The notes under the pieces are model-generated. The model worked only from the letters and a program-made list of their open reading frames with translations, was not told the origin of the DNA and ran no database searches. A DNA stretch of 64,000 nt from Desulfosarcina sp. (lineage in GTDB: Bacteria; Desulfobacterota; Desulfobacteria; Desulfobacterales; Desulfosarcinaceae): contig JABZFO010000116.1 of the NCBI GenBank assembly GCA_014237405.1, positions 936-64,935 on the forward strand, in the 5' to 3' direction. Made by a program: the position numbers and the translations under genes. Position 1 is the stretch's first letter. Each line of letters opens with the position of its first letter. This document shows, piece after piece, positions 1,155 to 60,312 of the stretch.

Positions 1155-1157
1155 TAG

Positions 1158-1297
1158 AGCCCATCCGGAAATGGCATCTTGCAGCCCAGCTCTGCGTTCT
1201 CGGGTTATCGAAATCCTCAACGTAGCGCCGCTACGCCTGCGGTTTCAATCACCCTGCGGCCTTGATCTGGACTACAATCTACCACTTCCGAATCGAC
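1158..1297 (-). repeat. Copy R1 of the ~140-bp rod-shaped palindromic intergenic element family (inverted orientation)
   Basis: The reverse complement aligns along its whole length with the copies at 6878, 10856, 13259 and 27669. Shared blocks include AGATCAAGGCCGCAG, TTGAAACCGCAGGCGTAGCNNCGCTACGT, GAGGATTTC, GAGAACGCAGAG and the terminal inverted repeats. It starts 4 nt after the ettA stop. Confidence 0.85.
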
Positions 1298-1498
1298 TCT
1301 ATGTATCGATTGAAAAAACGGGGCATAGGATGGTTCTTTACGACCTGGCCCTCCTTTTCATAAGGCATAAACCATGTCATTTCCGACTGTTGAAATTGCA
1401 CTGCCGGATTGGATGGACACGGTCCTTCCCAGCGCGGAACATACCTGTCCCAAGGCAGCCATCCGGCATTCAAACACACAGAAAACGGGTTGGCCCTC

Positions 1499-6833: not shown

Positions 6834-6877
6834 GGAATTTTCCTCCTTAGAGTTTGAATTACAGTTAAACTAGGTCA

Positions 6878-7021
6878 GTGTCCGTCCAGAAATGGTAGGT
6901 TGGGGTTCAGATCAAGGCCGCAGGGTTATTGAAACCGCAGTCGTAGCAGCGCTACGTCGAGGATTTCAATAACCCGAGAACACAGAGCTGAACCACAAGA
7001 TGCCATTTCTGGATTGGCACT
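6878..7021 (+). repeat. Copy R2 (reference orientation) of the ~140-bp rod-shaped palindromic element family
   Basis: Reads GTGTCCGTCCAGAAATGG...CAGATCAAGGCCGCAGGGTTATTGAAACCGCAGTCGTAGCAGCGCTACGTCGAGGATTTCAATAACCCGAGAACACAGAGCTGAACC...CCATTTCTGGATTGGCAC. It fills most of the gap between the FadB-like stop (7023) and the thiolase start (6833). Confidence 0.9.
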
Positions 7022-7022
7022 A

Positions 7023-9431
7023 TTAGTTTCTCAGGGGCTTGCCGGTGGTCAGAATGTGCTCGACCCGGGCAACTGTCTTTTCCTGTTTCCAGAAATCGAC
7101 GAAAGCCTCTCTTTCCAGGTTGAGGATAATCTCTTCGTCAACGGCGCTGTTGGTTCGCACATCGCCACCGCTGATTACGTAAGCGATCCGTTTGGCCAGG
7201 AAGGCGTCGTACTCGCTGACAAATTTGGCCGCCTGCATATTGAACAGTTCGGCGTCGATCATACCCTGGGCTGCCACACCGAAGACCTTGATGGGTCGCT
7301 TGACCGGCGGTGCGTAGCCTTCGTCCACCATCTTGAGGACCTCTTTCTTGGCTTCACCGATGAGGTAGTCCCGGTTGAACACGATCCGGTCCTGGGGGCC
7401 AAGGAAGCCGTTGGCCCGGGCTTCGGCGGCGGACATGGAAACCTTGGCCATGGCAATGGCCATAAAAGTGGGGATGAAGAATTTGGCCAGATCCACGTCG
7501 GTGACCGGTTCGGGGATGGTGCTGGTCATCTTCTTCCACAGATTCAGGCATCCGCCACCGCCAGGCAGCAGGCCTACGCCGATCTCGACCAATCCCATAT
7601 AAAGTTCGCTGTGGGCGACGATCTTGTCCGCAGCGCCCAGGCACACTTCGCAGCCCCCGCCAAGGGTCATGCCGTAAGGAGCCGCCACCACCGGAAAACT
7701 GGCATAGCGAACCTTCTGCATACCGGTCTGGGCTTTTTTCAGAAAAGCGTCGATTTCGGCGTATTTGCCCTCCTTGGCCAGCCCGGCCATGAAGGCCAGG
7801 TCGCCGCCGGCGGAAAAGGCACCGGGCATGCCGCCCGCCTGGTTTCCGATCACCAGGCCGGCACCGTTCGCGTCCACATAGTCCAGCCCTTCGGCCATGA
7901 AGTCGACGATTTCGCCGTTGATGGCGTTCATCTTGGTGTGGAATTCCAGGCAGAAGACATCGTCGCCGATATCCACCAAGGAGGCGGATTTGCATGTTTT
8001 GACGGTTTTATTGTCGGCCTTGAGGCCAACCAGGGAGATGATGTTGTCGCTGATTTTCACCGGCTGGTAGCTGCCTGTGGAAAAATCGTAAAAATACGGT
8101 TTGCCGTTTTCCAGCTTGTAAAAACTGTCGTTGCCGGCGGCCAGCATGGATTTGACAGCTTCAGAAACCGTGAGGCCGTCAGCTTCCATTTTGGCGACGG
8201 ATTCCTTCACACCGATGGCATCCCAGGTTTCAAAGGGGCCCATCTCGAAGTTGAAGCCCCACTTCATCGCATTGTCGATCTCCACGACCGTGTCGGAGAT
8301 TTCCGAAATCCGGTTGGCCGCGTAGATCAGGTTGGAGGCAACGGCTTTCCAGGCGAATTTGGCCCCCTTGTCGCCGCCGTATACAACGGCTTTCATCTTT
8401 TCCGGCAGGGATTTGGCAGCCTTGGCGGCAGCCAGGCAGGGCAGTTCCACCTTGCCATATTCCGCATGCTCCAGGGTGGCCGGATCGATGACCTTGCGGA
8501 TTTTTTTCCACTCGGGGGTAAGGTCGGTCTTGTAGAAACCGACTTTGGCTTTTTTGCCCAGCATTTTGCCCTCGATCATTTTGCCCACGAAATCGGGCAT
8601 GACAAAATCGGCACGGGCCTCGTCGTCGGGCACCAGGTCGTAGGTGTTCTTGGCCACGTGGAAAAGGGTGTCCAAGCCCACCAGGTCGGCGGTCTTGAAC
8701 ATGGCGGTTTTCGGACGGCCCATGGCCGGTCCGAACAGGGCATCCACTTCGGGGATGGTCAGGCCGTCTTCCAGCATCAGCTGCATGGTTTTTACCATGC
8801 CCTGGACGCCGATGCGGTTGCCCACGAAGTTGGGTGTGTCCTTGGCCCAGACGATGCCCTTGCCCAGTACCCGCTCTCCATAGTCGGCCATGAACGCGAG
8901 CACCTCGGGAAGGGTCTCTTCGCCGGGAATGATCTCCAGCAGTTTCATATAGCGGACCGGGTTGAAAAAGTGGGTGCCGAGGAAATGCTGCTTCAATTCG
9001 GCGCTCAACCCCTCACTCATACTTTTCAGCGGAATGCCGGAGGTGTTTGAGGAGATGATGGAACCCGGCTTTCTCACCGGCTCGATGCGCTTGAGCAGGT
9101 CCTGTTTGATCTTCAAGTTCTCGACCACCACTTCCACGATCCAGTCACACTCCGCCAGCTTGTCAAAATCGTCCTCCAGATTGCCGATGCTGATCAGGTC
9201 GGCATCTTTGGGCTGCATGAGCAAAGCGGGCCGCGACATGAGGACCGTATCCATCCCAGTCTTGGCAATTCGGTTTCTGGCAACCGGATCGCTTTTTTCC
9301 TCTTCTTTAAGGTCAAACGGAACGATGTCCAGCAGCAGCGTCTTCACACCGGCACCGGCCAGAAGCGCGGCAATACCGCCGCCCATCACGCCGCTACCGA
9401 TAACCGCTGCCTTTCTGATTTTCCTGGTCAT
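7023..9431 (-). CDS. Bifunctional 3-hydroxyacyl-CoA dehydrogenase / enoyl-CoA hydratase (FadB/FadJ-like, HAD domain N-terminal)
   Basis: Rossmann motif AAVIGSGVMGGGIAALLA near the N-terminus and a C-terminal crotonase-fold region (GGGCEVCLGAD). ATG 9431 (MTRKIRK) is preceded by GGAGGG, so it is preferred over the upstream start at 9506. Confidence 0.85.
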   Translation of the reverse strand: MTRKIRKAAVIGSGVMGGGIAALLAGAGVKTLLLDIVPFDLKEEEKSDPVARNRIAKTGMDTVLMSRPALLMQPKDADLISIGNLEDDFDKLAECDWIVEVVVENLKIKQDLLKRIEPVRKPGSIISSNTSGIPLKSMSEGLSAELKQHFLGTHFFNPVRYMKLLEIIPGEETLPEVLAFMADYGERVLGKGIVWAKDTPNFVGNRIGVQGMVKTMQLMLEDGLTIPEVDALFGPAMGRPKTAMFKTADLVGLDTLFHVAKNTYDLVPDDEARADFVMPDFVGKMIEGKMLGKKAKVGFYKTDLTPEWKKIRKVIDPATLEHAEYGKVELPCLAAAKAAKSLPEKMKAVVYGGDKGAKFAWKAVASNLIYAANRISEISDTVVEIDNAMKWGFNFEMGPFETWDAIGVKESVAKMEADGLTVSEAVKSMLAAGNDSFYKLENGKPYFYDFSTGSYQPVKISDNIISLVGLKADNKTVKTCKSASLVDIGDDVFCLEFHTKMNAINGEIVDFMAEGLDYVDANGAGLVIGNQAGGMPGAFSAGGDLAFMAGLAKEGKYAEIDAFLKKAQTGMQKVRYASFPVVAAPYGMTLGGGCEVCLGAADKIVAHSELYMGLVEIGVGLLPGGGGCLNLWKKMTSTIPEPVTDVDLAKFFIPTFMAIAMAKVSMSAAEARANGFLGPQDRIVFNRDYLIGEAKKEVLKMVDEGYAPPVKRPIKVFGVAAQGMIDAELFNMQAAKFVSEYDAFLAKRIAYVISGGDVRTNSAVDEEIILNLEREAFVDFWKQEKTVARVEHILTTGKPLRN

Positions 9432-10625: not shown

Positions 10626-10733
10626 CGTAAAAAGTCCGATATCTGCGTTACGCTTCATCCCTCGTCACTGCGGAGTACGCTAAGTACGCCTCATTCCTCG
10701 GGATTCGCAAGCCTTGATCTCGGGCTTTTTACG
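10626..10733 (-). repeat. ~108-bp palindromic element (subfamily B), related to the 140-bp family but with different termini
   Basis: Terminal inverted repeats are CGTAAAAAGTCCGATATC and GATCTCGGGCTTTTTACG. The reverse complement carries the GAGATCAAGGC and ACGCAGATAT modules shared with the main family. Its interior arms are complementary (GCGTTACGCTTCATCCCTCG / CGAGGAATGAGGCGTAC). Confidence 0.7.
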
Positions 10734-10855: not shown

Positions 10856-10998
10856 GTGTTTATCCAGAAATGGTAGATTGTGGTCCAGATCAAGGCCGCA
10901 GCTTTATTGAAACCGCAGGCGTAGCAACGCTACGTCGAGAATTTCAATAAAGCGAGAACACAGAGATGGACTGCAAGATGCCGTTTCTGGATGGACAC
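10856..10998 (+). repeat. Copy R3 of the ~140-bp rod-shaped palindromic element family
   Basis: Reads GTGTTTATCCAGAAATGG...CAGATCAAGGCCGCAGCTTTATTGAAACCGCAGGCGTAGCAACGCTACGTCGAGAATTTCAATAAAGCGAGAACACAGAG...CCGTTTCTGGATGGACAC. Confidence 0.9.
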
Positions 10999-11017
10999 TA
11001 ACGATAAGGACCATTAT

Positions 11018-11359
11018 ATGGCCACAGAAAACGATATCGTGCTGATCCACTTTGAAGATCAACCCTTGAGCTTCGCCCGGATTGAACAGATTCTTCCCGA
11101 TAACAAACCGGACTGGTACCATGTAAAACTGCTTATGCTTCAAATTCCGCTGCAGGTTGTCACATGGATTCTACGGGACCGGTATATCATGGGCGACGAG
11201 TTTACCATGAACGGTAAACGGATGCGCCTGGAGCGGGTCGTCTGCCCGGAAACAGTTATGGACGAGGACGATCTTCCTGAAGACATTCCCGGTAAACAGC
11301 CCGCCCCTACCAACGGCAAGGCCACGGTAATCTCCCTGGCCGACAAGCTGAAGCGATAG
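11018..11359 (+). CDS. Hypothetical protein (113 aa, acidic C-terminal half)
   Basis: The ORF shows GC3-biased codon usage. I chose ATG 11018 because the upstream ATG at 10991 lies inside repeat R3. No family was recognised. Confidence 0.5.
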   Translation: MATENDIVLIHFEDQPLSFARIEQILPDNKPDWYHVKLLMLQIPLQVVTWILRDRYIMGDEFTMNGKRMRLERVVCPETVMDEDDLPEDIPGKQPAPTNGKATVISLADKLKR

Positions 11360-13251: not shown

Positions 13252-13258
13252 GTACATA

Positions 13259-13401
13259 GTGTCCATCCAGAAATGGTGGATTTTGGTTCAGGCCAAGGCC
13301 GCAGCGCCCTTGAAACCGCAGGCGTAGCATCGCTACGTTGAGGATTTCAAGGGCGGGAGAACGCAGGCATGGGCCGAAAGATGTCATTTCTGGATGGATA
13401 C
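13259..13401 (+). repeat. Copy R4 of the ~140-bp rod-shaped palindromic element family
   Basis: Reads GTGTCCATCCAGAAATGG...CAGGCCAAGGCCGCAGCGCCCTTGAAACCGCAGGCGTAGCATCGCTACGTTGAGGATTTCAAGGGCGGGAGAACGCAGGC...TCATTTCTGGATGGATAC. It fills the convergent gap between dusB and the lipoprotein gene. Confidence 0.9.
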
Positions 13402-13404
13402 TAC

Positions 13405-19021: not shown

Positions 19022-19163
19022 GAGCCTGTTTCAAAATGTTGCAGTTCAGTCAAGATCAAGGCGGGCGATCATTTCAACCGGAGGCATACATTGAGTATGT
19101 CGAGGATTGAAATGTGAGCCCAACGCCGATATTGGCCGAAATGGGGCGTTTTGAAATTGGCTC
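19022..19163 (+). repeat. Copy R5, a divergent member of the palindromic element family
   Basis: The termini differ from the main family (GAGCCTGTTTCAAAATG / CGTTTTGAAATTGGCTC). The core is shared: CAAGATCAAGGC ... CCGGAGGCATACATTGAGTATGTCGAGGA, flanked by complementary ATTTCAA/TTGAAAT. It lies directly upstream of the polA start. Confidence 0.7.
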
Positions 19164-22031: not shown

Positions 22032-24320
22032 TCACGGCTTGGTGAACTTCCTGGCGAGGTCATTGTCGATGACGTAAATGCAAACCGCCTTGGCACCGTG
22101 TTCGGTATACCGGTAGCGTTTCATGAGGTTGTCCAAGAGAAACGTGACATCATTTCGGATCTTTTTGTCATATGTCTTGAAACCTTCTTTGGCGTAGTTC
22201 TTGATTGCCCGTCTGAAATTTACATTTTCCAGGAAGGGATCCAGCACCTTTTCCTTCAGGTTATAGACGTAGCGGTCCTTCAGCGATTGAAACAGGCGGG
22301 TTTCCGTGGGAGGTGTGCCGGCCACCATGATCTCCTGGGTGAGAGTTCTGGAGGTGTACTCCTTCTGGGCATCCTTCCTGAAATTCAAAAGTTTGCTCTT
22401 TTCCACCTTTTCACCCAGCATGCGCCGCTCAAATCCGTCCAGCAACTCTTCGGTGATGTGGACTTTCTCGCCGGTGAACTTGCAGGCTTCAACGGTTCCC
22501 GGTTCGAAATTGACTGCGAACATGTAATGCAGGATTTCCCGGTGAATCTGATCCTCGTTGTAATAGTATAAGGACTCTTTCACCTCCTGGAGAATGGTGA
22601 AATCGTACAGCAGCAGCAGTGAATTTAAAAAACCCTCCGGGATGGAGGCTTTCAGGTCTTTCTGACCATGGAAGAATTTGCAGAGCATGGACATGTCGAT
22701 CAATGCATCGGATTTGGCATAGATCGCGTAAAAAGTGTTGAAGATCTTGAGGGAATCTCGCCCCGATATTCCCTGACGGCCCTCACTCTCCGACTCACCG
22801 ATGATCCGCCGCCGCCGTTTGGCGGTGAGGGCCTTGCGGTCCTCTTCCGACAGCCACTCGGGAATATAGCCGGTATAGATTTCCATCTTGAGCAGTTGGA
22901 GATTCTTGTCGCAGTAACGGCTGTATTTTTCCGGCTCTGGGATCCACTCGAGCATGGCTTCGGAGCGCAGGCTCAACCGGGAAGAGATGATGACCCGGGC
23001 AAAGTTGTGCAACACCCGGGGCAGAAAACTGTCGTCGATGTATGATCCGAAGATGTTGCGATAGATCTCCACCTCGGTGTTCAGGTCCAGGACGTAGGGG
23101 ATGTTGATGTAAACGATACGGTCGGAAAATGACTGGAAGTCCTTGATGTTCTTCTTGTCTTCCGGATTCATCAGAGCCAGGAACAGGGAACTGACATTCT
23201 CCTCGATGTCCTCGACTTTGTGCACGCCTTCGCTGATGATGTTGTGAAGCTCGATAAGGCGTTCGATATTGTGGGACTTGATGTCCATCAGGGCATAGAC
23301 GCCGTTGTTGGTCTTGGCGTACCTGGAATAGATGTAGCGGACCTGGTTACTGTCGGAAAAAAGCCGGTTGATCTGCCGCTGAAGGTACTCGTTGGACAGG
23401 ATGATTTCCTTGATGGGGCGATCCCCGGGCGTAAACACGCTGATGCCCCTTCCCAGCCGGCGGTTGAACGTGTAAGGAACGGCGTGGACCATTTCGAATA
23501 CTTTTGCCGGGCTCTTCAGCCGAGTCAGCAGGGCCTCGTACAGGGAGCCGCAGATGGTGCAGGGGACATCGTAAAAAATCCACTCGAACGCCTTGTCGGT
23601 AAAAAGGGTGTATTTAAATTCGTTGTTATCGAACAGGTTGTCGAGAAATTGCCGCCGCTGGGCCTTGGGAATCAACAGCAGCGGATTGTCATGGCAGGGG
23701 CAGGGAACCTCCACAAAATAGCTATCCGTGTCGGGCCGGGCCATGGCCTGAACGGTCTCAAACTGCTTCTGGTCCGGATTTTGCTGCCTCTGGAAAAGGC
23801 TCTCTATAATGGAAGTGGTATCGTTGCCACCTTCGTGGGCCAGTTGCCTTCGATCCAGACGCCACACCGTCTCGTAACGGGTTCCCGCTTCTGTATTGGC
23901 GTACTCTTCGAAACACTTCAACAAATTGTTCAAAAAGGTGCTCTTACCGCAGCCGTGGGGACCGTCGAAGATATAAATCTTGTTCTGTTGGGCGCCGCTT
24001 CGCAGGGCCTCCACATGGTTGACCAGCCGATTGGCAAAAAGACGGTCCGCAAAAAAGGGGTGGTCCGCCCCTTCCACAAGCAGCTTACTGCAATCATAGC
24101 TCACATACTGAATGGACTCCGGATCGTTGGGATATTCATCCACCCCTTCACCCACGTGTGTTTTGAATAGATCGTGAAACAGCTGAAACACGTTCCGAAT
24201 GGTGCCGGTGGGGTTGTCGAGGACCACTTTGAGAAATTCCTCGAAGGGGATGGGTTTGCGATGGCCCGATCCATCGGCGCCAATATCGATATGCCGCATG
24301 GCTTTTTTAATGTGGTCCAT
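22032..24320 (-). CDS. PrkA-like P-loop protein (second, divergent PrkA/YeaG-family paralog, 762 aa)
   Basis: Walker A FDGPHGCGKSTFLNNLL and a large C-terminal domain. It is the last gene in the same strand block as prkA, yeaH and spoVR. Confidence 0.6.
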   Translation of the reverse strand: MDHIKKAMRHIDIGADGSGHRKPIPFEEFLKVVLDNPTGTIRNVFQLFHDLFKTHVGEGVDEYPNDPESIQYVSYDCSKLLVEGADHPFFADRLFANRLVNHVEALRSGAQQNKIYIFDGPHGCGKSTFLNNLLKCFEEYANTEAGTRYETVWRLDRRQLAHEGGNDTTSIIESLFQRQQNPDQKQFETVQAMARPDTDSYFVEVPCPCHDNPLLLIPKAQRRQFLDNLFDNNEFKYTLFTDKAFEWIFYDVPCTICGSLYEALLTRLKSPAKVFEMVHAVPYTFNRRLGRGISVFTPGDRPIKEIILSNEYLQRQINRLFSDSNQVRYIYSRYAKTNNGVYALMDIKSHNIERLIELHNIISEGVHKVEDIEENVSSLFLALMNPEDKKNIKDFQSFSDRIVYINIPYVLDLNTEVEIYRNIFGSYIDDSFLPRVLHNFARVIISSRLSLRSEAMLEWIPEPEKYSRYCDKNLQLLKMEIYTGYIPEWLSEEDRKALTAKRRRRIIGESESEGRQGISGRDSLKIFNTFYAIYAKSDALIDMSMLCKFFHGQKDLKASIPEGFLNSLLLLYDFTILQEVKESLYYYNEDQIHREILHYMFAVNFEPGTVEACKFTGEKVHITEELLDGFERRMLGEKVEKSKLLNFRKDAQKEYTSRTLTQEIMVAGTPPTETRLFQSLKDRYVYNLKEKVLDPFLENVNFRRAIKNYAKEGFKTYDKKIRNDVTFLLDNLMKRYRYTEHGAKAVCIYVIDNDLARKFTKP

Positions 24321-24368
24321 ATGCTGCCTTATCCGACCGATGGATTGTTCGGTACCGGTCCGTGACCT

Positions 24369-26021
24369 TTAAAGGATATTCTTGCTCAGCTTTCGGTCTT
24401 TCATGGTGTATAGCACCCGCTGCCATTTCAGATCCCGCAATTTGGGTGCATCGGTCTGCGGTGTTGGAAGCCCGGGTATGGCGGGCATTATTGGCGCCTG
24501 TGGCGTCGCTGCCACCTCCATGGTTTCCAACTGCACCGGACCGCCCCACAGGTATTCAATGCCCAGCATGGTGTTGGGAATGTATTCGGCCAGCAGCGGT
24601 TTGCCCTCGAACCGATGGATCAGGTAAAGGGATTTTTCTTTGGTTTTTTCCAGATCGACCTCGATGTGCGGCGGATGGTACAGGGATGCCATGAGCATTT
24701 CCCGGTAATCTTCAGCGCTTCGGCTTTTGACGTAATACTCCCAGACCATTTTTTTTTCATTGAGCCGCCTACCGGCCACGAAGAGCTTGTTGGCAGTCAC
24801 GAAGTCCTGATCCACGTAGTTGTGGATGAAGGTGAAGTCCGAAAAATTTTCACGCACCTTGAAGATGAAATCCTGACCCTGCCCGGTTCTGACATCGTAT
24901 TCTTTTCGCCTGCTGGCGTCAGCCTCATGCTGATAATCCCAGGAAATCCGTCCCCTTTCGGCCATCTCCTCTATGAAGTAAAACAGGCGCATCCCCAAGG
25001 CATAGGGGTTGAGTCCCACCCGGGGCATTGTTGTGACCCCGGCGTTGACCCGGGCAAAGTCCACCTCGTGCCCCTTGATGCGATCATCTTTCATGTACAG
25101 GTTTTCATGCCAGTAGGAAGCCCACCCTTCGTTCATGATCTTGGTGCGGATCTGGGGCTGAAAAAAAAGCGCCGTTTTTCGAACGACCTGGATCACCATC
25201 AGCATCCACTGGTTCTCTTCCCGGCGAAGCATCTTGGAGTTTTCCATGATGAATTCCAGCAGGTCCTGGGGCTTTTGCTTTTTCGCTTCCTTGTGCTTTT
25301 TAAACAGGCTTCCCAGCTCCGGATGACGTTTTTCGATCCGTGAGAAAAAGCGCTGCTCGCCCATAACCGGATCTTCCTTTATAGCCGCGTTGTATCGTTC
25401 CAGTTCTTTGATGTATTTACTGATGTTGGCTTTGGCGATATCCTGCAGGTAGACGTCGAAATAATAATCCACCTTATCCGAGATACCTGGATCCGGCGCT
25501 GAAAAGATCTTTGACAATAGCCCGTGATATCCCACCAGATTGTCGATGCCACGGGCGAACTCGATCACATAGTCCACCCAGCGTCCCTGTTCGGCACGAA
25601 GCCTGGCGATGGCGCGCTTGTCCGACAGCGCCTCACCGTTGAAGTCGTAATCCCAGGTATGGCGGAAATAGAGGTTGTTCTGGAAAAAATCGATGTGGCC
25701 AATGACATGATAGAAGATCATCACGTTCAGCCAATCCGGGTTGTTATCGTTGTAAAATGAGATGGCCGGTCGGGTGTTGATGACTGTCTCGTATGGATTC
25801 CCCGGGTACAGTTCATATTTGCCCTTTTCCTTGAGCACCTCCACATCGTGCACCCAGTAATCGTAGAGGGTGGGAATCATGACCTTGGGAGAGAGTTCGA
25901 TGAGATCCCGGTTGGTGACAATATACTCCAGGCTTTCGTCTTGGAAACTCAGACCGGCGTCACGGGCCCGCAGCTTGCATCCTTCCATGATCGTTTTGGT
26001 ATGCTGGTCGATCAGTTCCAT
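24369..26021 (-). CDS. SpoVR/YcgB family protein
   Basis: 550 aa, with WLNVMIFYHVIGHIDFFQNN and NEGWASYWH blocks characteristic of SpoVR/YcgB. Confidence 0.85.
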   Translation of the reverse strand: MELIDQHTKTIMEGCKLRARDAGLSFQDESLEYIVTNRDLIELSPKVMIPTLYDYWVHDVEVLKEKGKYELYPGNPYETVINTRPAISFYNDNNPDWLNVMIFYHVIGHIDFFQNNLYFRHTWDYDFNGEALSDKRAIARLRAEQGRWVDYVIEFARGIDNLVGYHGLLSKIFSAPDPGISDKVDYYFDVYLQDIAKANISKYIKELERYNAAIKEDPVMGEQRFFSRIEKRHPELGSLFKKHKEAKKQKPQDLLEFIMENSKMLRREENQWMLMVIQVVRKTALFFQPQIRTKIMNEGWASYWHENLYMKDDRIKGHEVDFARVNAGVTTMPRVGLNPYALGMRLFYFIEEMAERGRISWDYQHEADASRRKEYDVRTGQGQDFIFKVRENFSDFTFIHNYVDQDFVTANKLFVAGRRLNEKKMVWEYYVKSRSAEDYREMLMASLYHPPHIEVDLEKTKEKSLYLIHRFEGKPLLAEYIPNTMLGIEYLWGGPVQLETMEVAATPQAPIMPAIPGLPTPQTDAPKLRDLKWQRVLYTMKDRKLSKNIL

Positions 26022-26035
26022 TGGTTTCTGCCCTT

Positions 26036-27430
26036 TTAAGAGATCAACCGCTTGATCCCCTCTATCAGCCGGGGCTCGTCAGTGCTTTCGTTGATTACGT
26101 CCATACGGACGAGCTTGGGAAATTTTTCAAGCAGACCTGATTTTTTCAGGTACCGTTCCACTTCCGTGTTGTTCTGGGAACCACCGGCATGCTCGGCAAT
26201 GGTCACCCCCACACGACTGGCATATCCCAGCATCTCTTTCAGGGCCGGGATGGCCTTTTTCCCCTCCGTGTCCCAGTCGTCGCCGTCTGTGCCGTGGAAA
26301 ACGTAGATGTTGTAATCCGCGGCCAGGTTCTCCTCTTTCACAATCCGGTTCACCATTTCGTAGGCGGAAAAGACCTGGGTGCCGCCGGCCACTTTTGAGT
26401 TGTAGTATGTATAAAAATCCTTAACCTCCTTGGCTTCCGTGTCGTGGAGGATAAACCGGGACTCCACCTGATTGGCGTACTGGTAGAGCAGCCAGCTGTA
26501 GATGAGCACATGCTGGGTGACCACCAGCTCCGTGGCCTTGCCGGCCATGGATCCGGAATAATCGCGGAGAAAGAAAACCACCGCCTGGGATTCGAAATCC
26601 TTTTCCTTGGAAAGGATCCGATAGATTTTATCTTTAGGCGAAATGATGAGGCGGGACGGGTCGATGTCATCCACATCGGGGATGTTGCCCAGGTGGATGT
26701 TGGTTTCGATGACCTCTCTCAAGGTGGCCTTTTTGTCCAGCACCTGGCCGAAACCGCGATTCCGGTCGGTCATGTCGTAGGTGTAGCGGGTCAGGGAGCG
26801 CTTCTTTCCCTTGTCCTGCAGGTTGGGCAGTTCAAACTGTTCGGTAAGAATCTTTCCCAAGTCGTAGGCAGAGGACTCCATTTCGTGCTGGCCGCCCTCC
26901 CCTTCACCGGGCCCCCCGGCACCGGCCTCATCTGGATCCCGCACCGGCTGCTCGCCGATGACTTCGCCCTCTTCGCCATCACCGCTGCCGCCCTGTCCTT
27001 GACCCTCCTGCTGTTCGGCAAAGTTGGGGTCATGGATAAACTTCTCTTCCACGGTGGTGGGCACCACCACCACCTTGCCCTTGCCGGCCTTGCCGGGTTT
27101 GATCATTTTGCCCACCCGGATTTTCCGGGGGAAGCCGTCCTTTTCCCGCTGGCGGTCCTTTTCCAGCAGTTCGTCGATGGAACGGATGTGGCTGACGTAG
27201 GAGCCCTTGGGTTGGGGCATGGCCTGTAGCGTCATCAGATCGTGGTAATCATACAGGTTGAGAAGACGGATATCACCTTCATCGGTGGTGACCACCCCTA
27301 TGTTCCCGCCGATGACCGGCATTCCATGGGTCCGGTCGTCGTTGATCTCCAGGAGGATTTTTTCCTCCTGCACTGGGGTCAGACCAGCCCTTTTTAGATT
27401 ATGATAGATTTTACTTAGCTTGGAGTGCAT
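26036..27430 (-). CDS. YeaH/YhbH family protein (DUF444, vWA-like C-terminus)
   Basis: Acidic/Gly-rich linker (GEGGQHE, GDGEEGE) and the C-terminal DYSGSMAG...VFHGTDGDDWD typical of DUF444. The start is uncertain: ATG 27430 or TTG 27460. Confidence 0.8.
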   Translation of the reverse strand: MHSKLSKIYHNLKRAGLTPVQEEKILLEINDDRTHGMPVIGGNIGVVTTDEGDIRLLNLYDYHDLMTLQAMPQPKGSYVSHIRSIDELLEKDRQREKDGFPRKIRVGKMIKPGKAGKGKVVVVPTTVEEKFIHDPNFAEQQEGQGQGGSGDGEEGEVIGEQPVRDPDEAGAGGPGEGEGGQHEMESSAYDLGKILTEQFELPNLQDKGKKRSLTRYTYDMTDRNRGFGQVLDKKATLREVIETNIHLGNIPDVDDIDPSRLIISPKDKIYRILSKEKDFESQAVVFFLRDYSGSMAGKATELVVTQHVLIYSWLLYQYANQVESRFILHDTEAKEVKDFYTYYNSKVAGGTQVFSAYEMVNRIVKEENLAADYNIYVFHGTDGDDWDTEGKKAIPALKEMLGYASRVGVTIAEHAGGSQNNTEVERYLKKSGLLEKFPKLVRMDVINESTDEPRLIEGIKRLIS

Positions 27431-27452
27431 ATATTTTTTCCATGTTTTGTTA

Positions 27453-27617
27453 CTACCCAAACTGTACGTATTGTCCTAAGAAAACACCCGTTAAAATAAA
27501 AAAAGCCATGTCCACTTTTTCATAGGCGTACCAGTCCCCAGTAACAGTACCCCATACAAATGCGAAAATAGATAGTAAACAAATGGTTCCAACAATGAAT
27601 TTTATCCCGACTTTCAA
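27453..27617 (-). CDS. Candidate small membrane protein, 54 codons, TTG start (below the ORF-track cutoff)
   Basis: Reads (M)KVGIKFIVGTICLLSIFAFVWGTVTGDWYAYEKVDMAFFILTGVFLGQYVQFG, with two hydrophobic helices. GAGAGGG lies 7 nt upstream of the TTG, and an in-frame TGA lies just upstream. The stop overlaps the possible TTG start of yeaH. The ORF sits in a conspicuously AT-rich patch. Confidence 0.4.
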   Translation of the reverse strand: MKVGIKFIVGTICLLSIFAFVWGTVTGDWYAYEKVDMAFFILTGVFLGQYVQFG

Positions 27618-27668
27618 TTCGTTGCCCTCTCACACTTTCAAATTCTTTACTAATTAATCGTATTAACA

Positions 27669-27812
27669 GTTGTCCGTCCACAAATAGTAGATTTTGGTTC
27701 AGGCCAAGGCCGCAACGATTTTGAAACCGCAGGCGTAGCAGCGCTACGTCGAGGATTTCGAAATTGTGAGAACACCGGCCTGGGCCGAAAGATGCTGTTT
27801 GTGGATGGACAC
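27669..27812 (+). repeat. Copy R6 of the ~140-bp rod-shaped palindromic element family
   Basis: Reads GTTGTCCGTCCACAAATAG...CAGGCCAAGGCCGCAACGATTTTGAAACCGCAGGCGTAGCAGCGCTACGTCGAGGATTTCGAAATTGTGAGAACACCGGCC...CTGTTTGTGGATGGACAC. It starts 4 nt after the prkA stop, inside the prkA operon. Confidence 0.9.
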
Positions 27813-27815
27813 CGA

Positions 27816-29876
27816 CTAATTCTCATCCTCCTGGGTGCAAAAATATTCAATGGTTTTCTGCGCACAGGTCTTGCAATATCCCAGTTTGTTGAGCATGGTG
27901 TCTACCATGCGGTCGTACAGCTTCTGATTCTCCTCGTTGGTCCGGTTGGCCAGGGCGCCGATGAGGCTGCCGGCACCGGCGATATCCGATTTCAACCGCA
28001 CATCGGTGACCGCCTTAACCAGTTCCAGATTGTCCATGAAGTCGTAGTCCGGATCCACTGAAATCTTTTGGCCGTATATTTTGCGAATGGCGGTCCGGAA
28101 AGCCTCCCCCTGCTCGGTGGTTTTGAGTCCCAGCCGCTCCTCCACGCTCTTGATGTAACGCTCGTCGATCTTCAATGCTCGGAGTTCGCCGGTTTGGGGA
28201 TCCTTGTACTTCCACATCTTGTCCGGTCCCAGATTTTCGGCGTCAATACCGATGATCATGTTCACGTAGTTCATGACATCCTTGCGGATGGCCAGGGGTT
28301 CATCCATGTAAGCGTTAAACATCTCCGTCATGATTCGCTCCCGGTAAAACCCCTTGGCGGTCTTCAGGTCCTCCAGGTACTTGGCCCGGTCATTGGCGTC
28401 GGTCACATAGTCCAGAACAATGCGCTCCAGCGCTTTGAAGATATCGTATGCGAACATGCACTTACCTTCATTGGTCTCCGAACTTTCGATGAGCAGTTGG
28501 ATGGCCCGGCCCAGGTTTCGCTGTCCAAGCCCCTTCTGGCCGAACCGTTTGGTGATGTCCGGATCCTGGTTGAGGGTGTCGATGACCTCTGCCAGGGCCT
28601 TTATGCTTTTTTCTCCGGCCACCTCGCCGGCGGCCAGCTTCATGGTCTCGATGGGCGTGAGCTTCTCCGACCGGGCCAGTCGGGTGAGCACCACGGCCAC
28701 GGAGGCGGCATGATTCAGGTTGGGATCCTGGTGCAGGTACTCGCGGTTGAGGGTCGTTCGGGTATCGCTGCCGATGGCGTAAATGGTCAAATCCTTTTGC
28801 AACTTGTAGTTGGTGTTGTGGGAGACGTAGCAAATGCGGCAGCGGTCCACGATGGGAGCTTCTTCCTTTTCCGCCAGAAAGCGGTTGAATTCTGAGCTGT
28901 TACTGGTGGCGATGATCAGCGTGTCGATGGGCCACTTGTACCCGTCAATCTCGATGCTCCGGTTCTGGATGACCCCCAGGTATACCTGGACCAGGTCTTT
29001 TTTGTTCTTGAAAATTTCATCGGAGAAGTGAACCCCGCCGCCGGCAACCCGTGCCAGCGCCCCACGCCGCAGGTCGAAGCGGTAGGGATTGTTGGTCTCC
29101 GTGATGTGCAGCAGTCGCTGGATGGACTCTTCACCTAAAAGGTCCACCGCCGATGAGGTGATTTTATCCTTTGCCGGATACTTACCGGTGACGGTCCCCA
29201 GGCTCTCGGTCATGGGAACAGGGATAATTTGTACAAATTCGAGCATCTGTGCAAGATCACCGTCGGTGTAGTTCCGGATGTTGTTCCATATGAATGCGCT
29301 GCAGGCGCCCAGTGGGCGGTAATCCATCCAGAGGGTTTCGATCTCGTTGTCCGAGAATCCAATCTCCTGGGACAAAAACGCTCTTTTTTTTCCCGGATTA
29401 TCGTAGATGTTCATCCCCAAAATCATGGGGTCCTCATAGGTCTGTGATTCGATGGTCGTGATTTTTCCGTACCCGCCGATCTTGTCCAGGCCGGTAAATC
29501 GGAAGGAGTATTTCCGGTTGGCGTCGATGGATAAAAATTCCCTGTATTTATTACAGACAAAATCAACCAGAAAGGTCTTGCCGTTTCCCGGCTCACCCAC
29601 CAGGACAAATGCCATTTCCTTGGAGGATCCATTTTCCGCTGCGTCCTTGACATAGGAGACAAAACTGTTGATTTCATCGTACATGCCGATGATATGCTTT
29701 TTACCGGTTCTGAATATACTGAAATCATAGGTGGTCTTTCCGTTGACCACCACCTTTTCAATGTCGCTCTCCAGAATCATTCTGGAAACGCCCTGAAAAG
29801 CGTTTTCGAAACAGCGTTTTCCTTCCTTGACCTCGGCCAGATGCTGGTGAAGCGCCGATGTGTTCTTTTCTACCAT
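27816..29876 (-). CDS. prkA: PrkA/YeaG family serine protein kinase (AAA-type N-domain)
   Basis: 686 aa, with Walker A GEPGNGKTFLV and conserved PrkA C-terminal blocks. It is first in the prkA / yeaH / spoVR order. Confidence 0.9.
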   Translation of the reverse strand: MVEKNTSALHQHLAEVKEGKRCFENAFQGVSRMILESDIEKVVVNGKTTYDFSIFRTGKKHIIGMYDEINSFVSYVKDAAENGSSKEMAFVLVGEPGNGKTFLVDFVCNKYREFLSIDANRKYSFRFTGLDKIGGYGKITTIESQTYEDPMILGMNIYDNPGKKRAFLSQEIGFSDNEIETLWMDYRPLGACSAFIWNNIRNYTDGDLAQMLEFVQIIPVPMTESLGTVTGKYPAKDKITSSAVDLLGEESIQRLLHITETNNPYRFDLRRGALARVAGGGVHFSDEIFKNKKDLVQVYLGVIQNRSIEIDGYKWPIDTLIIATSNSSEFNRFLAEKEEAPIVDRCRICYVSHNTNYKLQKDLTIYAIGSDTRTTLNREYLHQDPNLNHAASVAVVLTRLARSEKLTPIETMKLAAGEVAGEKSIKALAEVIDTLNQDPDITKRFGQKGLGQRNLGRAIQLLIESSETNEGKCMFAYDIFKALERIVLDYVTDANDRAKYLEDLKTAKGFYRERIMTEMFNAYMDEPLAIRKDVMNYVNMIIGIDAENLGPDKMWKYKDPQTGELRALKIDERYIKSVEERLGLKTTEQGEAFRTAIRKIYGQKISVDPDYDFMDNLELVKAVTDVRLKSDIAGAGSLIGALANRTNEENQKLYDRMVDTMLNKLGYCKTCAQKTIEYFCTQEDEN

Positions 29877-39165: not shown

Positions 39166-40548
39166 TTAGGGTTTATCTTTTTCGAACAACTTGTATTTCT
39201 TAATTTTTTGATTCAATCCGCTTTTTCCAATGCCCAACAGGTCTGCCGCGTGGGCCTGTACATAGTTGGTTTTTTTCAGTGCCCGGATGATCATGTTTTT
39301 TTCAACAAGCGCCAAGGTGTCATATAAATTGGCATCTACAGGGATGCCGTCCATATGCAGGGTGCTGTGGGCATTGTCGATAAAATCCTTTGGAAGATCA
39401 GACACCTGAATGATCTCCTCCGGACTCATCACCACCGCCCGTTCGATGACATTTTCCAGCTCCCGCACATTTCCCGGCCAGTCGTATTCGTAAAACAGCC
39501 GCTCCACTTCCCGGTCAATCCCGGTCACTGGCAAACCCATGTTACGCTCGCCGCTGTATTTGGCAATAAAATGTCCCACCAGGGGCCGGATGTCCTCCAG
39601 CCGTTCACGCAGCGGTGGCAGCGTGAGGGGAACCACGTTGAGCCGATAGAACAAGTCTTCCCGAAAATTGCCCTTGGCCACCTCCGCCTTCAGGGATTTG
39701 TTGGTCGCTGCAATAAGACGGATATTGACGGGAAACGGCTTGACCCCACCCACCCGTTCAATCACCCGCTCCTGCAGAACACGAAGCAGTTTTACCTGCA
39801 GGCCCGGCGAAAGCTCCCCAATTTCATCCAGAAACAGCGTCCCGCCGTCAGCGATTTCGAAACGCCCTTTTTTCATGGAAACCGCACCGGTGAAAGCCCC
39901 TTTTTCATGGCCAAACAACTCACTCTCTAAAAGCGTTTCGACCAAGGCGGAACAATTGACCGCCACAAAGGGTTTTCCCTTTCTGGGGCTGTTAAAATGC
40001 AAGGCAGTGGCCACCAGTTCCTTTCCCGTACCGCTGGCCCCTTCGATGAGAACTGTTGCCGCGGCCGGGGCGACTTTCCGGATGACTTGAAAGACATCCT
40101 GCATGGCTTTGCTTTTGCCGATGATATTATGGAAGCTGTAACGGCTCTCGACAGCACTTCTGAGCTGGCGGTTCTCCTTGACCACACGATACATGGAAAC
40201 CGCCTTGTTTACATAAAGAACAAGCCGCTCATTGTCGAAAGGCTTGAGAATATAGTTATAGGCCCCTTTCTGCATGGCTTCCACAGCCTTTTCGACGGTG
40301 CCGTGGGCGGTCATCATGATTACCGGAAGGTCCGCATCTTCTTTCTTGATACGTTCAAGAAGATCGATGCCGTCCATGGCTGGCATTTTCATATCCGTCA
40401 GAACCAGATCCACGTCGGATTCGGAAAGAATATCCAACGCTTCTGGACCACTGTTAGCTGTAAGCGTCTCAAATCCCTCATCTTCCAGAATGGCCGCAAG
40501 GATGAGCGTGTAATTTTTCTCATCGTCAACGATAAGCATGGTTTCCAT
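39166..40548 (-). CDS. Sigma-54-dependent response regulator (NtrC family; PilR-like by context)
   Basis: Receiver domain (LIVDDE...DLVLTDMKMP), AAA+ domain with GASGTGKE and GAFTGA, and a C-terminal Fis-type HTH. It overlaps the upstream kinase gene by 1 nt (TAATG). Confidence 0.9.
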   Translation of the reverse strand: METMLIVDDEKNYTLILAAILEDEGFETLTANSGPEALDILSESDVDLVLTDMKMPAMDGIDLLERIKKEDADLPVIMMTAHGTVEKAVEAMQKGAYNYILKPFDNERLVLYVNKAVSMYRVVKENRQLRSAVESRYSFHNIIGKSKAMQDVFQVIRKVAPAAATVLIEGASGTGKELVATALHFNSPRKGKPFVAVNCSALVETLLESELFGHEKGAFTGAVSMKKGRFEIADGGTLFLDEIGELSPGLQVKLLRVLQERVIERVGGVKPFPVNIRLIAATNKSLKAEVAKGNFREDLFYRLNVVPLTLPPLRERLEDIRPLVGHFIAKYSGERNMGLPVTGIDREVERLFYEYDWPGNVRELENVIERAVVMSPEEIIQVSDLPKDFIDNAHSTLHMDGIPVDANLYDTLALVEKNMIIRALKKTNYVQAHAADLLGIGKSGLNQKIKKYKLFEKDKP

Positions 40549-41972
40549 TACTTCGTCTCCTGACTTAACGGGAATTTTACAGAAACCCGGGCCCCTTTTT
40601 CACGTCTGTTGTCAATCCGAATCATTCCATCATGGGCTTCGATGATGTTTCTTACGATCCCCAGCCCCAACCCAGTCCCCTTTTCCTTCGTGGTAAAAAA
40701 TGGATTCCAGATCTTTTCCATGACCGGTGCGGAGACACCTTCTCCCTCATCTTCGATATACACCCATAGCGAACCATCACCCGTCTCCATGATCACATCA
40801 ATGACACCGCCGCTGGGCATGGCCTGCATTCCATTGATAAGCAGGTTGAGAAACGCCTGGTAAAGCATGTCCTCATCGGCCATGATAACGGGTATGTCGC
40901 CATTAAAAAAAGTCCTGATAACGAAACCGTTTTCGTTTATCTGATGTTCGAGGAAATGGATATTCTTCTTGATCACCTCATCAATTCGACAAGGACTTCG
41001 GTTGGGATTTTTGGGACGTGCGTAGTTTAAAAAGTCAGTAATAATATTGTTCAGGCGCCGCGCCTCCGTCACGATGATATCTGCAATGGCGTTTAGGTTA
41101 TTGTGGGGATCCATTTTCTTGATCAGCAGTTCAGCTGAACTGCTGATAATTCCCAGCGGGTTTCTGATCTCGTGGGAGACACCGGCAACCATCGCTCCCA
41201 GTGATGACAGATGCTTGGCTTTGGCCAGCTGGTCCTTGAGCCGTATCCGCTCGAAAGCCCGCTTTTCGATGATGCCCTCACCCCGTTTCACGACATAAAT
41301 CAAGGTGAGCAGCAAAATCCCCATGACAATACTGATGGTACAAATCACCAGCACCTGATACTTGAAAATTTTCCGGTAATCACTGGTCAGATCCTGTCTG
41401 ATTTCGACGACGCCCAATACCGGACCGGATATGGGAGACAAGGGCTTTTCTGCCCTTAAGGGGGCAAATGTGACGATTTTAATCTCTTTTGGAATCCCCA
41501 GAAGAATTTCCCAGAACGCGCCGTTCTGAACCAGTTTGGAGGATGGTTTTCCGCCCAGCGCACTTTTATAGAAGGTTCCCCCAACATTTTCCATTCCCAC
41601 CAGCTCAGATGAAAAACTGTATGCAATGATATCATTATTGCTGTAGATGTTGACCATTTCAACCTTGAAGCTGTGCAATGTGCTGCGGACGACCCTGTCC
41701 ATTCTTTCGAACTGGTCCCGGTTTCTCAGTTCAATTTTTCCATACTTTAACCCCACAGGAAGAATAAACTGCAAAAAAACCTGATGGTTCAGGTTTTCGA
41801 TAAGTAGGAGCGCATAATCTTCGCTTTTCTGGTATTGCATTGAGCGGACCCAGTGGGTGTTGAGCACGGACAGGATAATGGTTCCAAGAAAAATGACGAT
41901 AAGGCTGGTAAAGGTAAAATATTTTACCAGCCGAAAGGGTTTGGCCCGCTCTGCAATATTGGATGGTTTCAT
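40548..41972 (-). CDS. Sensor histidine kinase (PilS-like by context)
   Basis: Two TM segments flank a periplasmic region. It has an H-box (SHEIRNPL), an N-box (LLINGMQAM) and G-boxes (DEGEGV, GTGLGLGI). ATG 41972 is used. Confidence 0.85.
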   Translation of the reverse strand: MKPSNIAERAKPFRLVKYFTFTSLIVIFLGTIILSVLNTHWVRSMQYQKSEDYALLLIENLNHQVFLQFILPVGLKYGKIELRNRDQFERMDRVVRSTLHSFKVEMVNIYSNNDIIAYSFSSELVGMENVGGTFYKSALGGKPSSKLVQNGAFWEILLGIPKEIKIVTFAPLRAEKPLSPISGPVLGVVEIRQDLTSDYRKIFKYQVLVICTISIVMGILLLTLIYVVKRGEGIIEKRAFERIRLKDQLAKAKHLSSLGAMVAGVSHEIRNPLGIISSSAELLIKKMDPHNNLNAIADIIVTEARRLNNIITDFLNYARPKNPNRSPCRIDEVIKKNIHFLEHQINENGFVIRTFFNGDIPVIMADEDMLYQAFLNLLINGMQAMPSGGVIDVIMETGDGSLWVYIEDEGEGVSAPVMEKIWNPFFTTKEKGTGLGLGIVRNIIEAHDGMIRIDNRREKGARVSVKFPLSQETK

Positions 41973-42675: not shown

Positions 42676-42873
42676 ATGGTTAAGAATTCATTAAAACAAA
42701 TTAGGGAGTCCCTTTTGATGAGCAAATCGGAACTGGCGAGAGAAGCGAATGTCTCTCCTATTACGATTACGCGGATTGAAGAGGGGAAACCGTGTCGGCT
42801 GGAAACCAAAAGAAAAATCTTGCTGGCTCTGGGGTACAGCCTTTCGGACAGTAAAAAAATCTTTGGTGAATAA
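42676..42873 (+). CDS. XRE-family helix-turn-helix transcriptional regulator (65 aa)
   Basis: LKQIRESLLMSKSELAREANVSPITITRIEEGK is a classic XRE HTH. The gene ends 12 nt upstream of pilM. Confidence 0.7.
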   Translation: MVKNSLKQIRESLLMSKSELAREANVSPITITRIEEGKPCRLETKRKILLALGYSLSDSKKIFGE

Positions 42874-42884
42874 AAGAGCTAACC

Positions 42885-44503: not shown

Positions 44504-44514
44504 GTATTGAGGAA

Positions 44515-45165: not shown

Positions 45166-45169
45166 AACC

Positions 45170-45784: not shown

Positions 45785-45785
45785 T

Positions 45786-60171: not shown

Positions 60172-60312
60172 GTGTCCGTCCAGAAACGAGGATTTTCGTT
60201 CAAGATCAAGGCCTGCGAAAAATTTTACCACAGGCATATGGTTGATATTCCGAGGATAAAATTTTGAGCATAACGCAGAGATTGGGCGAAAAGACCGTTT
60301 CTGGATGGGCAC
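60172..60312 (+). repeat. Copy R7, a divergent-core member of the palindromic element family, flanked by direct GAGGTA repeats
   Basis: The termini match the main family (GTGTCCGTCCAGAAACG / CCGTTTCTGGATGGGCAC). The core reads CAAGATCAAGGCCTGCG-AAAAATTTTA-CCACAGGCATATGGTTGATATTCCGAGGA-TAAAATTTT-GAGCATAACGCAGAGAT. GAGGTA occurs at 60166-60171 and again at 60313-60318. Confidence 0.8.

Follow-up and report, generated by a model that had tools for sequence, protein, structure and literature searches.

Bacterial miniature inverted-repeat transposable elements, or MITEs, are usually seen as short-lived junk, in which the ends matter and the middle does not, and those of the IS5 family are the counterparts of the plant Tourist MITEs (PIF/Harbinger-IS5 superfamily). 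ERIC sequences are imperfect palindromes of ~127 bp that lie in transcribed intergenic regions, are highly conserved across genera and are regarded as RNA hairpins whose effect depends on their orientation. IHF sites and outward promoters are present in Correia elements, which as mRNA are substrates of RNase III. REPINs, which are non-autonomous repeats able to form hairpins, are passed on vertically over long periods and keep their pairing; they are doublets of REPs of 20-40 nt tagged by a 5' GTAG/CGTC, make no target duplication and are linked to a RAYT gene present as a single copy. In the attC sites of integrons, structure prevails over sequence, and the site is a strand-specific folded single-stranded DNA with conserved unpaired bases. 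ERIC has been classed as a MITE, and bcr1 of the Bacillus cereus group is a mobile repeat of ~155 bp with flanking direct repeats, which is transcribed and whose structure is kept by compensatory changes (PMC3184786). Here, we analyse rod-shaped palindromic repeats found in a 64,000-nt stretch of a Desulfosarcina sp. genome (contig JABZFO010000116.1, hereafter the window), which contains seven copies (R1 to R7); the copy under study is R2, at 6878..7021 on the + strand. We conclude that the seven copies are old and fixed and belong to a non-autonomous DNA transposon (MITE), family A of a cross-phylum superfamily; firmly shown are the MITE superfamily, a shared internal rod, a strand-specific fold, maintained pairing, slow evolution at fixed sites and a placement at stop codons.

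In size (145-185 bp), absence of coding sequence, terminal inverted repeats and dispersed intergenic copies, these elements resemble IS5-derived bacterial MITEs, as they do by their 2-4 bp duplications of T(N)A / TTAA type, their ends of GGGCC.GT...AAATAA type and their presence or absence at an orthologous site. They differ from them in that one module sits on frames with three duplication lengths and unrelated ends, the centre is the best conserved part, the termini drift yet remain complementary, and no parent insertion sequence (IS) was found. They are intergenic imperfect palindromes like ERIC, but have no sequence similarity to it, occupy other hosts, and their strong strand is usually not the mRNA strand. 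The Correia (NEMIS) elements of Neisseria are comparable by their TA target, repeat starts (TA|(T)AGTG...), location near genes and long hairpins, but their sequence is unrelated (PMC3184786), and none of the Correia features listed above was found here. The bcr1 repeat has a cruciform-like two-hairpin shape instead of a single rod, is limited to one genus and makes a 5-bp duplication. The REPIN/RAYT system is distinguished by the duplications present here, by the position of GTAG inside the apical stem and by the lack of any Y1-transposase family among 140 neighbouring proteins. Integron attC sites differ as well, since the present elements show no cassette array, no integrase among the neighbours and, by inspection, no R''/L''-L'/R' boxes (RYYYAAC...GTTRRRY), and have duplications.

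The preliminary description of the window had listed seven intergenic, non-coding copies, each drawn as one long hairpin, and all of this was recovered. A repeat finder and nhmmer, run with a family profile built from related copies, retrieved the seven copies at the positions first given; strong nhmmer matches (E 1e-41 to 1e-44) correspond to 27670-27812, 13258-13403, 10856-11000, 6877-7022 and 1155-1299(-), and the divergent copies give weaker ones, 60171-60312 (R7, E 1.5e-8) and 19024-19153 (R5, E 2e-6). Fold prediction returned a single rod for all 7 in the orientation originally proposed, with z-scores of -8.2 to -12.5 and no shuffled sequence folding as well (0/200). No open reading frame (ORF) passes through the copies, and Pfam confirmed the flanking genes, which encode an ABC-F ATPase, BrkB, thiolase, 3-hydroxyacyl-CoA dehydrogenase/enoyl-CoA hydratase, Dus, PrkA, DUF444, DNA polymerase I, MarR and a ParA-like protein. 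Family A elements are 141-147 bp long, with 7 copies per 64 kb in the window and 61 copies in the fetched loci.

The sub-features first listed are all visible in the alignment of copies: terminal inverted repeats (TAGTGTCCATCCAGAAATGG / CCRTTTCTGGATGGACACTA in family A), a distal stem (P3) that is variable yet complementary, a CCGCAGG / CGAGGA internal loop and a CGTAGC-NNC-GCTACG apex. The large internal loop ATCAAGGCCGCA / GAGAAC..CAG is predicted to be unpaired. In R2, its left strand (ATCAAGGCCGCA) is at 6911..6922 (+), with CAAGGCC invariant in 45 copies, and its right strand (GAGAACACAGAG) at 6976..6987 (+), with GAGAA invariant in the same copies. The apical core of R2, AAACCGCAG.CGTAGC.NNC.GCTACGTCGAGGATTT, lies at 6932..6966 (+), has exact-pattern matches elsewhere and combines a 3x2 GCA/GA internal loop, a stem of 8 bp in which a G·U pair is conserved, and a triloop of variable sequence. 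The apices of R5 and R7 are swapped for other self-complementary sequences; in this comparison only ACC..AGGC and CGAGGAT are strictly kept, and the apical stem is replaced. The motif CAAGGCCGCAG (<=1 mismatch) occurs 10 times, versus 1.8 expected. The left-arm sequence TGGTAGATT (6894-6902 in R2), nearly invariant in family A, resembles an extended -10 element facing into the repeat on the + strand, and the complementary arm CGGCATCTT has no such resemblance; the conservation of TGGTAGATT may simply reflect the tandem G·A motif described below.

Related loci were gathered by an exact-pattern scan for the 34-nt apex AACCGCAGNCGTAGCNNCGCTACGTYGAGRATTT in a species-representative genome set. Exact matches to this apical core were found in at least 110 loci and at least six phyla, with looser variants in metagenomes. 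The hosts include Desulfosarcina and other Desulfobacteraceae, Desulfobulbaceae, Desulfopila, Desulforhopalus, Syntrophales, Geobacteraceae and Desulfuromonadaceae, together with Myxococcota, Nitrospira and other Nitrospirota, gammaproteobacterial metagenome-assembled genomes (MAGs), Veillonellaceae, Selenomonas and a Candidatus Peribacteria genome. No fewer than four outer frames carry the 34-nt core. The window copies represent family A (about 145 bp), which is found in Desulfosarcina-like genomes. Family B (about 181 bp) has ends such as GGGCCTGTTCACAAATAAC, and its inner modules occur without terminal repeats in Geobacteraceae. Family C (about 160 bp), with ends GGAACCGCTGATTAAATG, is present on many metagenome contigs and in a Veillonellaceae and a Selenomonas genome; we take the metagenome series rich in this family to be rumen samples. 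Family D is the Nitrospira form and occurs in tandem: in a Nitrospira MAG, two copies of this fourth frame are arranged head to tail, 138 nt apart (L060:2400-2700), with further copies on the contig. Beyond the core, families A, B and C have in common a stem interrupted by a symmetric tandem G·A mismatch (AGAU/AGAU; flanking motif AGATTT..AAAGAT), and B and C also contain a second motif of tandem-G·A type (GGAUUU/GAAGAC). We describe the superfamily as one rod module whose outer, IS5-type ends differ and whose duplications are of 2 bp (TA), 3 bp (TNA) or 4 bp (TTAA-like).

No named family was recognised at the outset, and the searches bear this out. Rfam gave 0 matches at gathering thresholds in the window and, at permissive ones, only chance matches (E>1) on the copy tested; ten loci with other frames (B, C, D, E) gave none either, including to hairpin ribozyme, 6S, SRP, Y RNA and HEARO. 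No sequence match was obtained in plasmids, phages and viral contigs, nor in E. coli by blastn (word size 11; 20,395 records, 5,426 genomes). Core sequence strings produced chance matches only in the full text of the literature, and articles on MITEs and repeats in Desulfosarcina and Geobacter, including the supplementary repeat tables of G. bemidjiensis, yielded no match. The MITE reported in a Thiomargarita paper is a different element. The family is previously undescribed in the databases and literature searched. In kind it is a bacterial MITE, which departs from those described by its centre-out conservation across phyla, its strand-specific fold and its orientation-specific retention at stop codons. 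The strand asymmetry, the bias of position and orientation at stop codons and the conservation of the apex across phyla had been missed by the preliminary description.

The claim that pairing is kept as the sequence diverges was examined on 45 family A copies, with 500 shuffles and partner-slide controls, and all controls were beaten. Standard pairs make up 95.2% of cells (86.1±0.4% when shuffled), 26/52 pairs show changes on both sides (15.9±2.0 shuffled) and the covariation score is 0.338 (0.164 shuffled). None of the 500 shuffles reaches any of these values, and sliding the partner by 1-3 columns lowers pairing to 33-41%. Double changes also affect 32/54 pairs in family B. Even the outermost terminal repeat varies among copies of one genome and remains complementary (AATGAGTGTTC/GAACGCTCATT, CTTCCATTCAC/GTGAGTGGAAG), which is unlike a fixed transposase binding site and fits old copies under a pairing constraint. 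Part of the covariation is nevertheless subfamily history, since P3 types recur in non-orthologous copies of different species.

The fold is strongly asymmetric between strands. The rods of R1 to R7 have predicted energies of -79.3, -74.5, -74.4, -79.5, -67.8, -84.3 and -62.5 kcal/mol, versus -41.2, -63.2, -51.0, -62.4, -49.1, -52.7 and -43.0 kcal/mol for the respective complements (that is, -62 to -84 versus -41 to -63), and the complement of R1 has a z-score of only -1.8. Over all fetched copies, the strand that we call + (the rod form) is the more stable in 61/61 copies of family A, 35/36 of B and 32/32 of C (128/129), by a mean of 23-26 kcal/mol, and this advantage holds alike for copies placed sense and antisense to the adjacent genes; in family A the mean energies are -79 kcal/mol for the strong strand and -56 for the weak one. 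A weaker hairpin in the mRNA was considered as the sole cause of the asymmetry and rejected, as B and C copies placed in sense keep the same sign. Non-Watson-Crick combinations follow the same polarity, with G·U:A·C ratios of 329:33 in family A (about 10:1) and 179:22 in family B. Restricting the count to pairs that are mostly Watson-Crick, which avoids the bias of predicting the structure on the + strand, still gives 127:29 (A) and 92:22 (B). Mutational bias was rejected, by reasoning, as an explanation of this G·U excess: known mutational asymmetries predict the opposite sign, since C-to-T deamination of the sense strand, which also serves as template of the lagging strand, would place G·T pairs on the - strand. 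All members of the superfamily have the + strand hairpin built in, and compensatory changes together with those of G·U type preserve it, also between orthologues.

Orthologous sites allow this preservation to be followed in time. The window between 21.6 and 34.6 kb is syntenic with four loci of related genomes at about 84-89% identity. R6 is found at the same site, 3 nt past the prkA stop codon, in 5/5 genomes, and a second locus is also filled in five. Orthologues of R6 are 0.86-0.93 identical to the window copy (0.83-0.94 over all pairs), versus 0.65-0.74 for prkA third codon positions, and the intergenic DNA on the other side of R6 is unalignable between clades. In line with the selection on a structure first suggested, orthologous copies change more slowly than the adjacent third codon positions. 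Six orthologous sets together contain 18 double compensatory differences, 21 from Watson-Crick to G·U on the + strand and 6 from Watson-Crick to A·C on the + strand; in the three closest orthologous pairs, 6 changes lead to G·U(+) versus 0 to A·C(+). Orthologues share locus-specific P3 signatures that paralogues lack, an argument for vertical descent. Two clades compared at the second locus, however, show five double changes in a stretch of about 20 bp, which resembles replacement by another copy more than stepwise change.

The position of family A copies relative to genes also shows a bias of orientation. In 41/61 copies, the stop codon of an opposite-strand gene lies -3 to +12 nt from the right end of the + form, versus only 7/61 with a same-strand gene ending at the left end, 5 of these 7 being between convergent genes. 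Given this antisense placement (41 vs 7), the upstream mRNA carries the weak-folding complement directly after, or overlapping, its stop codon. Stop-adjacent copies show no such bias in family B (10 antisense vs 8 sense) or family C (4 vs 10). As B and C look younger, their duplications being better preserved, the bias of family A is consistent with copies being filtered by survival rather than inserted preferentially. Orientation goes with the local gene and not with the replichore, because R1 flips with its genes relative to R2-R7, as do two copies in L022; replication as the determinant of orientation is disfavoured on the same grounds. A scan for the sigma-70 promoter consensus found none in or beside the copies. 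Terminator-like sites lie downstream of 4/53 copies, versus 5/54 in the control direction, and an intrinsic terminator was rejected, as no T run follows the element on either strand.

Evidence for mobility comes mainly from the sister families. Identical 4-bp flanks (TTAA and relatives) surround 20/31 copies of family C and identical 3-bp flanks (TAA, TTA, TGA) 14/36 copies of family B, with a median of 0 at shifted offsets in both cases. The flanks of B are true duplications outside the inverted repeat, because the variable middle base matches on both sides of a copy. Family A has TA/TA flanks in 17% of copies versus a 7% background, a weak signal, as old copies would give. An insertion is directly visible in one comparison: a gene of L023 has the end ...ACC TAG|TGTCC...(element)...GCGC|TA, and L042, L091 and L092 have orthologues that stop at this codon (TAA, TAG, TGA) and lack the element; the target was the TA of the stop codon, with the first G of the element rebuilding TAG. 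L023 is the one case of presence/absence polymorphism, two other loci being filled in all 5 genomes compared. We conclude that insertion takes place at T(N)A sites, very often in a stop codon that is rebuilt by the first base of the element. The ends of families B and C look IS5/PIF-like: duplications and end sequences fit the ISfinder features of the IS5 family, the putative mobiliser (2-4-bp duplications of T(N)A / YTAR type and terminal repeats starting with GG(G/A)), and blastn gave no match in plasmids or E. coli, which carry IS5. The contrast originally drawn between these repeats and MITEs is not supported, as the IS5-like ends of the sister families, the true duplications and one empty site of the window type identify a MITE superfamily. 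Further searches for a partner or for polymorphic sites gave the following. No orphan terminal repeats were found around an ORF in the fetched loci, and the 140 neighbouring proteins contain no recurrent family, being products of ordinary housekeeping genes. A transposase carried in the apical loop, as in an IStron, was rejected: scanning metagenomes for a left half-core without the right half revealed no transposase, and its yield consisted of truncated copies, chance matches to coding sequence and copies of family B with an element of ~175 nt, of a second repeat family (family R, see below), in the apex. Exact-protein look-ups found no strain-level empty sites, the contigs breaking inside the elements.

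The role of the rod is a matter of proposal. We lean, somewhat short of an even chance, towards a cis-acting role of strand-specific folded DNA combined with a host filter on orientation. The transposase would be a DDE enzyme of the IS5 family acting in trans, and the + strand rod would be a cis-acting structure of the element itself rather than a host regulatory RNA gene; the conserved purine-rich G·A loops and the invariant apex would be what is recognised, in folded single-stranded DNA or in a cruciform arm. The copies that persist would then be those that give the mRNA of an upstream gene or operon the weak complement and not a rod of -80 kcal/mol. The constancy of the asymmetry across families and genomic contexts makes it look like a property of the element and not of the host mRNA, and a folded-DNA role is preferred because no promoter is in evidence. 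Several points weigh against this interpretation. No transposase occurs among the 140 neighbouring proteins, and a terminal-repeat scan of L001-L114 and the window, which did not cover whole genomes, found no autonomous IS with the same termini; the TA duplication of family A itself is statistically weak and rests on one empty site; and the invariance of the core is partly due to ascertainment, the loci having been gathered by exact match. We know of no DDE mechanism that needs a strand-specific internal hairpin. Moreover, a role at the level of the element alone is unable to explain the conserved fixed orthologous copies or the + strand changes that favour G·U, and such conserved copies would need a host-level function (exaptation) or frequent gene conversion (concerted evolution). 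It is possible, though doubtful, that the shared rod, with its invariant apex, GCA/GA loop and recurring tandem-G·A motifs (AGAUUU/AAAGAU), is a previously unrecognised functional module, a protein-binding structured RNA or folded single-stranded DNA, which has spread among six or more phyla on unrelated IS5-type MITE frames and is kept by strand- and orientation-specific selection of the host at gene ends.

The remaining explanations make different use of the same observations. Copies located 0-3 nt from stop codons, inside operon-like rows (fadB-thiolase, prkA-DUF444-spoVR), retained between orthologues and changing more slowly than third codon positions, would suit an exapted cis-acting mRNA element comparable to ERIC, REP or Correia, co-transcribed with the upstream gene at its 3' end or between cistrons, whose hairpin sets 3' ends, blocks exonucleases or offers an RNase III/E site. 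The lack of a canonical terminator after family A copies, so that the hairpin could itself mark the 3' end, points in the same direction, as does L109, a Geobacter-type locus with the module between a stop codon and an intrinsic terminator; bcr1 provides a precedent for compensatory change in a transcribed bacterial repeat (PMC3184786). We nevertheless hold this to be rather unlikely, as the mRNA of family A contains the weak strand (mean of -56 vs -79 kcal/mol; z -1.8 for R1), it is the other strand whose pairing the substitutions favour (G·U:A·C 10:1 family-wide, 21:6 between orthologues), and the asymmetry in B and C is not flipped by orientation to host genes. Absence of any function is an unlikely explanation as well: the arms would be kept complementary by arm-to-arm templated repair, template switching or gene conversion among hundreds of copies, the asymmetry being inherited from the founder and the orientation bias reflecting only the purging of harmful insertions. 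The high copy density (7 per 64 kb), the asymmetry of the same sign in all families and contexts, the P3 and terminal subtypes common to non-orthologous copies of different genomes, which make much of the 'covariation' subfamily history, and the five double changes within about 20 bp at the second orthologous site, more like a replacement, all agree with it. However, arm-to-arm correction should erase the asymmetric loops and the G·U and G·A mismatches, which are the best-conserved parts; locus-specific P3 signatures in orthologues and not in paralogues argue against frequent conversion; and changes in recent orthologous pairs number 6 towards G·U(+) versus 0 towards A·C(+), the opposite of what known mutational biases predict.

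It seems quite improbable that the + strand is transcribed as an antisense or stand-alone RNA, either from the -10-like TGGTAGATT or by divergent firing of the downstream promoter, to act through its product or as an antisense insulator. The folding strand does have features typical of RNA (abundant G·U, tandem G·A, several GGA words), TGGTAGATT is nearly invariant in family A, and the antisense orientation bias is seen in family A alone; but the copies and their surroundings have no promoter according to the sigma-70 scan, transcription starting within the left arm would leave out the outer stem, which covaries, the left flanks are unconserved between orthologues, and TGGTAGATT is equally explained by the tandem G·A motif of B and C, which has no -10 resemblance. 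A folded single-strand site for a tyrosine or HUH enzyme, as in attC, REPIN/RAYT or IS200/IS605, where structure, strand and extrahelical bases count rather than sequence, has hardly any likelihood. The strand-specific hairpin, the conserved unpaired bases and the variable complementary stems speak for it, and the core includes the GTAG and CGTC words that, according to PMC3733652, tag many REPs. True 3- and 4-bp duplications, on the other hand, imply staggered cuts by a DDE enzyme, the copies are dispersed singly between ordinary genes without cassette arrays, and no integrase, Y1 or RAYT family is present among the 140 neighbouring proteins; GTAG is within a stem and is not a 5' tag, and inspection reveals no R''/R' attC boxes.

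Contrary to the usual view of bacterial MITEs, it is the middle that is conserved here, with 34 nt identical from Desulfosarcina to Negativicutes, Nitrospirota and a genome of the candidate phyla radiation (CPR). This middle rides on frames with three insertion signatures, folds on one strand only and is kept at fixed sites over a time in which third codon positions diverge by about 30%. If functional, it would be a widespread structured element missing from Rfam and a clean system for the domestication of mobile hairpins at gene ends; if it belongs to the mechanics of transposition, it would indicate an undescribed strand-specific folded intermediate or cofactor site for IS5-type elements. 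Either way, numerous breaks of contigs and intergenic 'hairpins' in metagenomes from sediment and rumen are explained by the family, and searches for RNA motifs should mask or model it. Short-read contigs stop inside the elements, typically 30-55 nt from the core (L111, L112, L114 and many gammaproteobacterial MAG loci such as L006, L035 and L049), and the gammaproteobacterial MAG has many near-identical family B copies breaking its contigs. As contigs end inside them, the elements are a systematic cause of assembly breaks in these metagenomes.

The window copies are spaced by 2-33 kb, each single, among housekeeping genes. R1 (1156..1299, -) begins 2 nt past the stop of the ABC-F ATPase gene (+ strand, ending at 1154), to which its strong-folding strand is antisense. 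R2 is located between the stop codon of the 3-hydroxyacyl-CoA dehydrogenase/enoyl-CoA hydratase gene (7023-7025, -) and the start of the thiolase gene (6833, -). R3 (10856..10998, +) occupies a divergent intergenic region, ~19 nt upstream of a likely + strand gene start (AAGGA/ATG at about 11018); the corresponding ORF, 11018-11359, has no Pfam match and equates to a 113-aa gene called in L113, and an ORF at 10991 that overlaps R3, also without a Pfam match, is probably a mis-called start. R4 (13259..13401, +) is between convergent genes, the Dus gene ending at 13251 and a 311-aa gene (- strand) ending at 13405. The divergent copy R5 (19022..19163, +), with its substituted and still self-complementary apex, has on one side the start of the DNA polymerase I gene (18999, -) and on the other a 328-aa gene with its stop at 19211 (-). 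R6 (27669..27812, +) lies 3 nt past the prkA stop (27816, -), and the other divergent copy, R7 (60172..60312, +), is between a MarR-type (-) and a ParA/MinD-type (+) gene. The genes around R6 form a row at 22032-29876, all on the - strand (prkA, DUF444 (yeaH-like), spoVR and a second prkA-like gene), in which prkA and the DUF444 gene are separated by R6 and a 355-nt spacer. This row and R6 are kept in related genomes as far as contigs reach (2/4 loci span the row).

A further repeat at 10626..10733 had been noted as a relative of the seven copies. It is rod-shaped and has words in common with them, but it belongs to a separate family R with its own copies in other genomes, at least 15 of them in Desulfosarcina-type, Syntrophales and Nitrospirota loci. 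The words common to families R and A are GATCAAGGC, CCGCAG, CGAGGA and AACGCAGA, and CCGCAG and CGAGGA, which are the strands of the apical internal loop, are on swapped 5'/3' sides of the apex in R compared with A. Family R elements are about 108 nt long, with ends CGTAAAAAG.CCGA...TCGGGCTTTTTACG and apex GGCGTAC-NNNN-GTACGCC; further copies are at L021:3521-3636, L001:755-874, L003:7572-7689 and L054:894-1002, with a nested one at L115:11745-11915. The latter is an insert of ~175 nt placed exactly in the apical loop of a family B copy, with a TAGCTGG direct repeat on either side, and similar inserts are present in L134, L159, L185 and L187. The insert starts with a short palindrome like the ends of family A (GTGCCCATCCGGAAAC TCCGGATGGAACAC) and holds a family R-like apex, so that small elements insert into one another's apices. 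Directly after the family R copy, at 10734, the window lacks 115 nt that are present in L113:1358-1472 (GCA_014237215.1, JAAXOI010000064.1), a contig otherwise 100% identical to the window on both sides of the 115 nt; either strains or assemblies differ here, or a repeat (CTTTTTACGA at both edges) has undergone an indel.

Some family B copies (L098:4893-5082, L065:4398-4541) have an extra G+C-rich mini-hairpin of ~25 nt (GGTACCCCCTT..GGGGTGTG) in an arm, which may be a REP-like micro-element. Finally, the low-G+C stretch of the window at 40000-48200 (0.44 vs about 0.56) corresponds to the type IV pilus genes pilM-pilN-pilO-pilP-pilQ and not to a mobile island, and a pair of genes for a sigma-54 response regulator and a histidine kinase is found at 39166-41993, mostly just upstream of the pil genes.

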